Shown here in pieces: positions 380-1,955 of a DNA stretch of 64,000 nucleotides. The notes beneath the pieces were generated by a model. That model saw nothing but the letters and a program-made list of their open reading frames with translations, was not told where the DNA came from and made no database searches. Made by a program: the position numbers and the translations under genes. The stretch is from Acidobacteriota bacterium (GTDB lineage: Bacteria > Acidobacteriota > Blastocatellia > RBC074), in NCBI GenBank assembly GCA_016715865.1, contig JADJXM010000006.1:257564-321563 (forward strand), written 5' to 3'. Positions within the stretch are counted from its first letter, which is position 1, and each line of letters opens with the position of its first letter.

Positions 380-918
380 AGTGCAAGCTTTCAGTTGATA
401 TAAATGAATTAATGGTTCGCATCATATTTATTATGGCTTTGACTTTGCTGATCGCTCCGGCGGTATGGGCGCAGAGCGCCAGCGGTGCGCCGGTTCCCGT
501 CGAAGAGCAGAGCGAGGCGATGATCGACACCCTCAAGCGGATGCGGATCAAACGGGAAGAGAACGAGCATAAAAAACTGCTCGAAAAAGGCACTCAGATT
601 CTGGAAATCTCGGAAGAACTGGCCAGGAATTACGCACATCAGACCATCACCAGCCTTCCACGCGAAGTCGAGAAGAAACTCAAGGAGATAGAAAAGAACG
701 CTCGCCAGATTCGATCCGAATCGGGCGGCTCCAAAGACGAACCTCTGGAATCGCCCCCGGCAACGCTCGATGAGGCGATAAACCGGCTCGAAGAGACCTG
801 CCGTCACCTCAACGAAGACCTTTCCAAAACTTCCCGGCGCGTCGTCTCGGTCTCAGTCATCAACCATGCGATCGAGGTGATTGAAATCGTACGTGTGTTG
901 AAGGGATATATTAAATGA
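376..918 (+). CDS. hypothetical secreted protein (signal peptide, charged coiled-coil-like body)
   Basis: N-terminal hydrophobic stretch MVRIIFIMALTLLIAPAVWAQ typical of a Sec signal peptide (true start probably the internal ATG ~412); remainder K/E-rich, no known domain recognised. Confidence 0.45.
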   Translation: MKCKLSVDINELMVRIIFIMALTLLIAPAVWAQSASGAPVPVEEQSEAMIDTLKRMRIKREENEHKKLLEKGTQILEISEELARNYAHQTITSLPREVEKKLKEIEKNARQIRSESGGSKDEPLESPPATLDEAINRLEETCRHLNEDLSKTSRRVVSVSVINHAIEVIEIVRVLKGYIK

Positions 919-1955
919 GTAGAAAGTATAAAGTTGAAAGTAGAAAGTACAGAACTACGGGAGCGCGGCTTTCCGTACTTTCTACTTTATACTTTCTACT
1001 TTTTACTTCAATCGTTGCCGGGCAACAGCCTGCACAACCTCAGCAACATCCCAATGAACTGAGGATCAAAGTAGTCGAGCGTCAGGATGAGAACCGGCAG
1101 GAGCCTCCGAAGAAGATCGAGCCGTCCGAGGATTCGATCTCACTTGAAACGAATCTGGTTGTCGTCAACGTGACGGTCACCGATGCGGAGGGGCGTTATG
1201 TGCCGGGGCTGAAAATTCCGGACTTCAGGATTCTGGAAGACAAAAAGACCCAGGAAATTCTCAGTTTCAGCTTTGAAGAATTGCCGTTCGCCGCTGCCAT
1301 CCTGCTCGACAGCAGTGGCAGCATGGAGCAAAAGCTCTCGCTCGAGCGCGCAGCCTGCGCCAATTTCATCGATGGAATCCGGCCCGGGGATTCTTATTCA
1401 ATCTACAGTTTCGGCGGAACGAAGGTCAAAAAGCTGCAGGACTTCACCGAATTCAAGGACGTGCCGGACTCGGTCTGGGACATGCGGGCGGATGGAAACA
1501 CGCCGCTCTATGATGGAATCCATGAAGCGGCCGAAGCTCTATCGAAGCGACCAGAGCGGCGACGGGTGATCCTGATCGTTTCGGACGGCGCCGATACCCA
1601 GAGCCGCAGATCGCTCGACGAAGCGCTGCGAAAGGCGATTGCCGCTCACGTTTCGATTTATGCCGTTGATATGAGCGACTCTTCCGTCTTCGGCGGGCGA
1701 CAGCGCGACAGCGGAGCCGAAGTGCTCAAGTCAATGACCGCCAGGACCGGCGGAAGGTTCTTCAGGTCACCCGGCGGCATAACCCTGCGCGAGGCTTTCG
1801 CCAATACGGTCGATGAATTGCGTAAACAGTACACAATGACATACTCATCGACCAACGAACGCTTCGACGGAAAGTGGCGCGAGATCGAAGTTCGAGTCGT
1901 TCAGCCAAATCTCGGCATTCGCACACGACAGGGATATTTCGCGCAGAAAAAATAG
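915..1955 (+). CDS. von Willebrand factor type A (VWA) domain protein, secreted
   Basis: MIDAS motif LLDSSGSM (DxSxS), downstream T and D residues of MIDAS, VWA-fold length; N-terminal signal peptide (n-region RKYK..., h-region LSVLSTLYFLLFTSIVAG|QQ). N-terminus is encoded by a repeat hairpin (see findings). Confidence 0.8.
   Translation: MSRKYKVESRKYRTTGARLSVLSTLYFLLFTSIVAGQQPAQPQQHPNELRIKVVERQDENRQEPPKKIEPSEDSISLETNLVVVNVTVTDAEGRYVPGLKIPDFRILEDKKTQEILSFSFEELPFAAAILLDSSGSMEQKLSLERAACANFIDGIRPGDSYSIYSFGGTKVKKLQDFTEFKDVPDSVWDMRADGNTPLYDGIHEAAEALSKRPERRRVILIVSDGADTQSRRSLDEALRKAIAAHVSIYAVDMSDSSVFGGRQRDSGAEVLKSMTARTGGRFFRSPGGITLREAFANTVDELRKQYTMTYSSTNERFDGKWREIEVRVVQPNLGIRTRQGYFAQKK
917..1008. 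repeat. GTAGAAAG-family tandem-octamer inverted-repeat hairpin (B1), embedded in 5' end of VWA gene
   Basis: Left arm atgagtagaaagtataaagttgaaagtagaaagta; right arm tactttctactttatactttctactttttactt, reverse-complementary, ~25-nt spacer. Confidence 0.8.

Follow-up and report, generated by a model that had tools for sequence, protein, structure and literature searches.

Palindromic repeats can be carried inside genes, as is the case for the Rickettsia palindromic elements (RPEs), which are inserted in frame in protein-coding genes (Ogata et al. 2000, as quoted in the review PMC10969869), and intragenic copies of ERIC (enterobacterial repetitive intergenic consensus), BOX and MITE (miniature inverted-repeat transposable element) repeats carry open reading frames (ORFs) and form gene termini (Delihas 2007 and others, as cited in PMC10969869). 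In Xanthomonas and Nostoc, the heptamer repeats GGGAATC and GGGGA(T/C)T, respectively, cluster at distances of up to 50 bp from stop codons, or overlap them, between co-oriented ORFs (Rehm et al. 2015, PMC4692102), and a Geobacter genome paper describes dispersed tandem-heptanucleotide elements (PMC2700814). Here we report on a heptamer-built hairpin at positions 918-1007 of a 64,000-nucleotide stretch of an Acidobacteriota genome (contig JADJXM010000006.1, positions 257,564 to 321,563, assembly GCA_016715865.1; the whole stretch is called the window, and coordinates follow its numbering), where the reading frame of a VWA-domain protein gene (915-1955, plus strand) passes through the repeat. 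According to our analysis, the repeat hairpin has probably replaced the start and the signal peptide of this VWA gene and would still be translated, exported and cleaved, a reading to which we assign a probability of about 0.7.

The locus shares with the RPEs that a dispersed palindromic repeat, present at about 10 array loci in the window, is translated in an otherwise conserved functional protein, and that one repeat-derived peptide, here KVESRK, recurs in unrelated proteins. However, RPEs are about 150 bp long and internal, with host sequence on both sides, whereas the window repeat consists of inverted heptamer arrays which take the place of the 5' end, the start codon and the signal peptide; nothing of the host coding sequence precedes the VWA repeat, and no insertion footprint is visible. 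The way in which the small ERIC, BOX and MITE repeats give neighbouring genes their terminal residues and stop codons is comparable to the amidohydrolase tail described below, but these elements have a defined length with terminal inverted repeats, while the heptamer arrays are of variable length and lack target-site duplications. Placement by stop codons between co-oriented genes is common to the window arrays and the Xanthomonas and Nostoc heptamers; the latter are G-rich and quadruplex-forming, whereas the window units GTAGAAA, GTTGAAA and CTGGAAA are A/T-rich without G-runs, and the window arrays, unlike those repeats, are often inverted pairs or long hairpins, have an RTGAGTAR edge and in one case are coding. 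Heptamers of the short tandemly repeated repetitive (STRR) type were reportedly described in cyanobacteria by Mazel and colleagues in 1990. Repetitive extragenic palindromes (REPs) and bacterial interspersed mosaic elements (BIMEs) are abundant intergenic hairpins at gene 3' ends inside operons, a location in which the window arrays resemble them; REPs are single imperfect palindromes of about 35 nt mobilised by RAYT transposases, and we know of no tandem-heptamer substructure in them, in which respect the window arrays differ. As to the encoded peptide, Kaiser and colleagues are said to have found in 1987 that random or non-native sequences act as secretion signals in an artificial library in yeast; the likeness is that an arbitrary basic-then-hydrophobic peptide can replace a signal peptide; in our case the replacement would be natural and come from a structured repeat. 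That repeats are absorbed into coding sequence is already known, as with the RPEs, and replacement of a 5' end and signal peptide is what differs here. A term search of the review PMC10969869 returned no mention of a repeat-derived signal peptide, and a limited literature search found no paper on such repeats in Acidobacteria or on a repeat-derived bacterial signal peptide.

The hairpin is an imperfect palindrome with two 37-nt arms (918-954 and 971-1007), which are 86% complementary, and a 16-nt loop (955-970), and both arms are arrays with a period of seven, the unit being (A)GTAGAA in the left arm and TACTTTC in the right one. The purine-rich left arm consists of the heptamers GTAGAAA, GTATAAA, GTTGAAA and GTAGAAA followed by GTAC and encodes SRKYKVESRKYR; the loop, self-paired in part, encodes TTGARL; and the pyrimidine-rich right arm, (TACTTTC)n with a T-rich tail at its end, encodes SVLSTLYFLLFT. 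Codons 2-31 of the VWA gene are exactly the 90 nt of the hairpin. RNA of positions 890-1030 folds with a minimum free energy of -48.9 kcal/mol (z = -5.8), a stability that not one of 200 dinucleotide shuffles reaches. Since the window contains 25 matches to GTAGAAAGTA with at most one mismatch, where 0.85 would be expected, the hairpin is part of a real dispersed family. The 346-aa protein matches TIGR03436 (acidobact_VWFA) over residues 75-344 as well as Pfam VWA models, and ORF 915-1955 gives it the N-terminus MSRKYKVESRKYRTTGARLSVLSTLYFLLFTSIVAG followed by QQ, just as a preliminary description of this DNA had translated it.

Upstream, at 376-918 on the plus strand, lies a gene whose product of 168-180 aa has a signal peptide of its own and belongs to no Pfam family. 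Its C-terminus, LKGYIK, matches the orthologues in position, and its stop codon TGA (916-918) overlaps the ATG of the VWA gene (915-917) to form ATGA. The codon before this ATG is an in-frame TAA, and the first in-frame ATG, GTG or TTG after it is a GTG at codon 86, which falls within the conserved domain, so that ATG 915 is the sole usable canonical start, in agreement with the preliminary description, where no alternative had been seen; the public annotation of the identical protein, MBK9314766.1, which is labelled as coming from an Acidobacteria bacterium MAG, starts at the same ATG. Both the ATG and the upstream TGA are included in ATGAGTAG (915-922, plus strand), a copy of the edge motif RTGAGTAR. 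This motif matches the window 10 times, where 2.6 matches would be expected; six of the matches are found at the edges of arrays, and the motif also borders arrays at 3595, 10894, 10902, 30881 and 41402. The VWA start codon is therefore repeat-associated. It was, however, placed too far inside when it was described as lying wholly in the hairpin: it stands at the foot of the stem, where only G917 pairs. Sequestration of the ribosome-binding site (RBS) along with the start codon, which had also been proposed, does not agree with the position of the Shine-Dalgarno-like AAGGGA (900-905, plus strand, 9 nt before the ATG, a candidate site read from the sequence), which sits in the conserved K-G codons of the upstream gene, outside the hairpin stem. 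Forcing positions -15 to +15 open costs 17.6 kcal/mol, compared with a median of 9.8 (standard deviation 4.5) for 47 crude window gene starts; this is the third highest cost of the 47, high but not exceptional, and another window gene pair with overlapping stop and start is similar. The VWA start region is only partly occluded. There is no sign of the translational switch suggested earlier for the hairpin; the ATGA overlap suggests translational coupling instead, and VWA initiation is probably coupled to upstream termination because ATG 915 overlaps the upstream TGA.

Relatives of the window VWA locus are labelled Blastocatellales or Blastocatellia and share a conserved gene order (upstream gene, VWA, TatA, TatC, TPR-like gene and DAG-kinase-like gene). 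We aligned 29 homologues and, separately, scanned 47 loci. Outside the 90% cluster of the window protein, all homologues in the alignment have short, ordinary signal peptides of about 20 aa, and the 47-locus scan agrees, with such peptides in about 45 homologues; P0002 (81% identity), for example, begins with MPYRVVSIAILLSLAALSPAVG before QQPAQ, and P0003 (73%) with MFKLVIPIILFGALSAMPGP before QQPAR. At its N-terminus the window protein is longer by about 15 residues and does not resemble the homologues ahead of the junction of xxG with QQ, and the aligned orthologue N-termini are unrelated to it and lack the repeat-derived residues. The earlier proposal that the repeat became both start and signal peptide thus withstands the orthologue comparison suggested with it, in which a conserved N-terminus of identical, non-repeat sequence would have refuted it: the derived N-terminus and the sole start hold, and the signal function is a prediction made from sequence. 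The arrangement between the two genes differs among the loci. L009, L010 and about 40 more distant loci (VWA identity at most 72%) have a short spacer without repeats after the upstream gene. The upstream gene of L003 (73%) and L018 (77%) ends in AGGTGA, its TGA directly adjoined by the array (which opens with GTAGAAAG or, as also written, GTAGAAAGTAAAAAGTAGAA); the VWA ATG, with its own signal peptide, comes after a further 110-190 nt. In L021 and L001 (81%; L021 is the sister contig from which the upstream region of P0002 was taken), the upstream gene stops at the TAG of the first of five to six GTAGAAA units, after which come a 30-nt spacer and the VWA ATG, and in the window clade (at least 97%) the VWA reading frame passes through the repeat. 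Since the outgroups have ordinary signal peptides and, where they carry the array, have it between the genes, the repeat-derived N-terminus of the window is the derived state and a non-repeat signal peptide the ancestral one, and by this comparison the array at the VWA site is older than the split of the three repeat-bearing clades. The window no longer has the spacer, nor the old ATG and some 16 codons, and the inverted arm stands in their place; the old c-region is kept (SIVAG, compared with SPAVG or LPAGG), and the cleavage region, xAG before QQ, is ancestral. A scan of metagenome contigs for VWA relatives retrieved no locus above 67% identity and thus no intermediate states. The idea that the hairpin loop is the post-array spacer of the outgroups, which would make the palindrome one formed in situ, was rejected as weak, since 34-477 of 5,000 shuffles equal the match to L021 and the match to L001 is non-significant. 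In L021 (2926-2970) the upstream stop is itself the TAG of the first GTAGAAA unit (ATT AAG TAG AAA), a second array-supplied stop codon besides that of the amidohydrolase.

Codons 1-36 of the VWA gene are predicted to encode the signal peptide, with the mature part beginning at 1023. The preliminary description had assigned a basic n-region to the left arm and a hydrophobic h-region to the right arm, and both assignments stand, with a net charge of +6 over residues 1-18 and a Kyte-Doolittle mean of 2.1 for the best 12 aa of the h-region LSVLSTLYFLLF, which is weaker than in the orthologues (2.5-3.2) and in a plausible range. The non-repeat c-region SIVAG (1008-1022, plus strand) aligns with the orthologue signal-peptide ends SPAVG and LPAGG before mature QQPAQ. 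In two-hairpin relatives from the cluster of the window protein, described below, the n-region charge is +6 (L005 and L006) or +5 (L007). Residues -3 to -1 before QQ are V-A-G in the window, T-A-G in L007 and F-A-G in L005 and L006, at the same position as the predicted site of the orthologues, and V-A-G and T-A-G agree with the -3/-1 rule of von Heijne. An uncharged run of 27-32 residues follows the n-region. The VWA family is deemed to be exported because every homologue examined among the 47 scanned loci has a signal peptide, and we infer Sec export and cleavage for the window protein and, with them, that the repeat was exapted, as the preliminary description put it. A Tat signal was considered, given KKRRTLG in L005 and L006 and the adjacent tatA and tatC, and rejected, as RR is missing in the window and L007; the twin-arginine likeness of KKRRTLG, which makes up n-region residues 10-16 in L005 and L006, is probably a coincidence.

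Independent assemblies in the 90% cluster of the window protein comprise L005 and L006 (ENA), L007 (NCBI CAZBPH010000085) and the Logan contigs L022-L024, so that the strain sample consists of three full-length lineages plus L022-L024 as far as these contigs reach. The N-terminus of L005 and L006 reads MSRKYKVESKKRRTLGAQVSVLSTLYFLLFTSIFAG before QQ, L007 has 36 aa before QQ, and the Logan contigs stop inside the right arm and show the same frame from there onward to QQ. QQ is preceded by exactly 36 codons in every full-length version, and the frame is open in every strain variant. Over this 36-codon stretch there are 11-19 nucleotide differences, in which basic-to-basic and hydrophobic-to-hydrophobic replacements predominate. 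Between strains the mature part has a synonymous divergence (dS) of 0.09-0.16 and a ratio of nonsynonymous to synonymous divergence (dN/dS) of 0.07-0.16, a sign of strong purifying selection from which we take the VWA gene to be in use, and the 36 N-terminal codons have a dN/dS of about 0.7-0.8 with charge and hydrophobicity kept. Judged by these substitutions, the N-terminus evolves as signal peptides do, fast and with its properties kept. At codon 5 (927-929), the sole in-array position where a perfect repeat gives an in-frame TAG, each of the five hairpin copies has TAT, even if the other arm offers it no A to pair with. Apart from the VWA left arms there are nine arrays of at least four heptamers, seven from other loci and two being the antisense, purine-strand reading of the right arms of L007; when the purine strand is read, none of the nine is open in any frame. 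The pyrimidine arm is open in all frames from composition alone. The invariant TAT and the closed frames elsewhere indicate that coding constrains the left arm.

Two tandem hairpins with a 14-nt linker, ATCCGGTCAGGATA, between them are found in L005 (753-980), L006 (10000-10225) and L007 (9959-10184). The distal hairpin adjoins the upstream TGA, as the window hairpin does, and is a 117-nt unit open in frame, and the proximal one starts with ATGAGTAGAAAG and runs, also with an open frame, into the mature VWA part. The two hairpins fold independently, and their copies differ by one heptamer. Three different starts were picked by gene callers across the strains, which gives proteins of 346, 371 and 385 aa. 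Translation from the distal ATG would place two basic-hydrophobic segments one after the other in the product, an arrangement that according to the positive-inside rule should misorient the domain, so that the proximal ATG would be the expected start in two-hairpin strains, and we infer its use in L005-L007. As to whether the single hairpin of the window is a recombinational collapse of two copies or the pair a duplication elsewhere, one informative base bears on the order. The two loops are near-identical within a genome and different between genomes, a pattern suggestive of concerted evolution or repeated duplication. The Logan short-read contigs of L001, L002, L004 and L022-L024 end exactly in heptamer arrays, and because short-read contigs break there, truncated VWA gene calls (for example MTAGQQ...) seemingly have no signal peptide. 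The consequences for annotation are discordant start calls between strains and short-read assemblies which break at the VWA repeat. The contigs CAZBPH010000085 and CAZLYK010000003 are titled 'uncultured Heliobacteriaceae bacterium', a label that is probably wrong, as their gene content and closest relatives are those of Blastocatellia.

We propose that the ancestral locus consisted of the upstream gene with its stop, a (GTAGAAA)n array, a spacer of 30-190 nt and the VWA ATG with a Sec signal peptide of about 20 aa. In the window lineage the spacer would have disappeared, together with the original ATG and roughly 16 codons from the start of the gene, and an inverted (TACTTTC)n arm would have come to adjoin the surviving old c-region. 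Translation is predicted to start at the ATG of the edge motif, where ribosomes that finish the upstream gene at TGA 916-918, having by then melted the stem at its base, may restart at the overlapping ATG, as the ATGA overlap and the Shine-Dalgarno-like AAGGGA 9 nt ahead of it suggest. The purine arm would then be decoded as Lys, Arg, Glu, Ser and Tyr, giving the n-region its charge of +6, and the pyrimidine arm as Leu, Phe, Tyr, Ser and Thr, giving the h-region. The retained xAG before QQ would serve as the signal-peptidase site and leave a mature protein with QQPAQ as in the relatives, and a semi-tryptic peptide of the cleaved protein would begin with QQPAQPQQHPNELR.

Several observations weigh against replacement of the signal peptide by the repeat. 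The near-neutral evolution of the 36 N-terminal codons would equally fit unconstrained sequence, and the strain lineages number only three to four. The h-region is less hydrophobic than that of the orthologues, the n-region, with 18 aa, is unusually long, and Phe at -3 in L005 and L006 is poor for signal peptidase I. A stem of -49 kcal/mol from +3 should hinder initiation, and the ATGA overlap is the one pointer to coupling; moreover, the proximal ATG of the two-hairpin strains lies between two strong stems with a badly spaced AGGA, and their distal ATG is also in frame. An alternative is that the translated repeat segment is an uncleaved signal anchor which tethers the VWA domain to the inner membrane, or that it exports poorly and the location of the protein has changed in this clade: the long, strongly basic n-region with the uncharged run of 27-32 residues next to it would suit an anchor, as would a Phe at -3 that disfavours cleavage. 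We deem this quite unlikely, since the ancestral c-region and the QQPAQ junction are kept in every strain and V-A-G and T-A-G satisfy the -3/-1 rule, which is established knowledge. A hairpin that acts mainly as a regulatory element at the RNA or DNA level (terminator, attenuator or occluder), its coding capacity being a tolerated side effect, would explain the very stable stem in all strains, the U-rich tail after it and the start-region opening cost, third highest of 47. The association of arrays with stops in 10 of 10 window loci suggests a 3'-end function for the family, and a promoter and terminator scan, in which no promoter was detected near the hairpin, returned one weak terminator-like inner stem (956-977). 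Yet the stem includes neither the RBS-like site nor most of the start codon, and no alternative structure, ligand-type motif or Rfam match was found: a search of 700-1200 in E-value mode gave sub-threshold miRNA-hairpin look-alikes only, and the whole window gave no match at the gathering threshold and no tRNAs. Covariation in the stem is uninformative, with one compensatory pair among five hairpin copies, and an export signal would still be needed, which only the repeat segment can supply. A mainly regulatory role is therefore very improbable.

The near-neutral N-terminal codons, together with a pyrimidine arm whose composition keeps every frame open, could also mean that the open frame is fortuitous, the repeat having destroyed the 5' end of a VWA gene which in this clade is untranslated or decaying. 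This becomes hardly credible in view of the mature-region dN/dS of 0.07-0.16 across strains at a dS of up to 0.16, of the lack of any frameshift or stop in any strain variant despite slippage-prone heptamer arrays, and of the TAT that is invariant at the only in-array position with an in-frame TAG. Finally, heptamer tracts within the coding sequence could make VWA phase-variable, switched on and off by slippage of 7 nt in either direction, because units of 7 nt do not divide into whole codons; the 4.7 perfect copies in the right arm of L007 and the distal and proximal copies one heptamer apart would fit such slippage, but all alleles seen are in frame, the full-length ones in this small sample all have 36 codons, and the window arrays are imperfect (84-88% matches), so that we give phase variation next to no weight.

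A broader reading, which we consider unlikely, is that the heptamer hairpins of this Blastocatellales subclade form an undescribed class of intercistronic modules, bifunctional for coding through their sequence asymmetry. The RTGAGTAR edge and the purine arm may give the upstream gene stops in all frames plus an ATG, and the purine-then-pyrimidine order may be intrinsically 'basic then hydrophobic', that is, signal-peptide-like. If this were true, hairpins of this kind could time and again give rise to export signals and short gene termini or take their place, and the stem at this locus may still gate VWA expression in a coupling-dependent manner. The preferred reading, in which the repeat replaced the signal peptide of one VWA gene, has a meaning of its own. 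Signal peptides evolve fast, and one seldom sees their de novo origin with the states before and after it side by side; at this locus the earlier state, an intergenic array and an ordinary signal peptide, survives in sister lineages, and the later one persists while the mature part is under selection. The locus suggests a general rule by which a hairpin whose 5' arm is rich in purines and whose 3' arm is rich in pyrimidines, when read in sense, encodes a charged and then a hydrophobic segment, and structured intergenic repeats would for this reason be ready raw material for targeting signals.

The other members of the family in the window occur as full inverted pairs and half-arrays and are made of the units GTAGAAA, GTTGAAA, GTGGAAA and CTGGAAA plus a 16-mer derivative, CAGCTGGAAACTTCTT. 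Further arrays or hairpins lie at 3599-3641, 3702-3799, 8356-8490, 9333-9482, 17489-17526, 30884-30913, 32375-32454, 37583-37614 and 41154-41402, of which those at 17489-17526 and 30884-30913 are partnerless half-arrays; the arms are heptamer arrays of variable length, the loops vary by locus, and the loci show no flanking duplication. At all 10 window array loci the array is within about 10 nt of, or overlaps, the stop of an ORF of at least 90 aa, where the ORFs are crude longest-ORF calls. Most arrays are between co-oriented genes, and several end right before the Shine-Dalgarno sequence of the next gene. No arrays were detected in about 80 kb of outgroup loci (L009, L010, L012 and L020). 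A protein search with a 75-aa purely repeat-derived peptide found no other repeat-built protein, and a scan of the window and five related loci for credible genes starting inside arrays returned antisense shadow ORFs only. A second full hairpin of the same family (10894-11009, called B2 in the preliminary description) is located between two minus-strand genes, and its right arm gives an amidohydrolase (Pfam Amidohydro_2, 10988-11962, minus strand, ending LVMKVESRK) its last residues KVESRK and its TAG stop (10988-10990). This had been claimed before and is borne out by the orthologues, since those at 76-78% identity end in VESRK or VESKK and more distant ones have unrelated short tails after GGNLRRLL.

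Among the remaining observations, an 83-nt unit is tandemly duplicated (89% matches) at 41171-41332, between the arms of a GTTGAAA-type hairpin, so that the inner part of the element is duplicated. The region 8346-9480 of the window is a 1.1-kb interval without an ORF of at least 90 aa; a minus-strand ORF of about 68 aa (about 8895-9100, translated by hand) has no Pfam match and contains a Flp-pilin-like G/xxxxEY motif. In L003 (9816-9925) a (CATTTGT)n/(ACAAATG)n hairpin is nested beside a GTAGAAA array, and (GTAGGCG/GTAAGCA)n arrays of about 100 nt are located downstream of tatC in L003 (about 12216-12730) and L018 (about 12582-12700). In L018, the 3' end of a 329-aa ORF (5273-6262) takes in a whole (TTTCCAG)n/(CTGGAAA)n hairpin, which may be a repeat-derived C-terminal extension.

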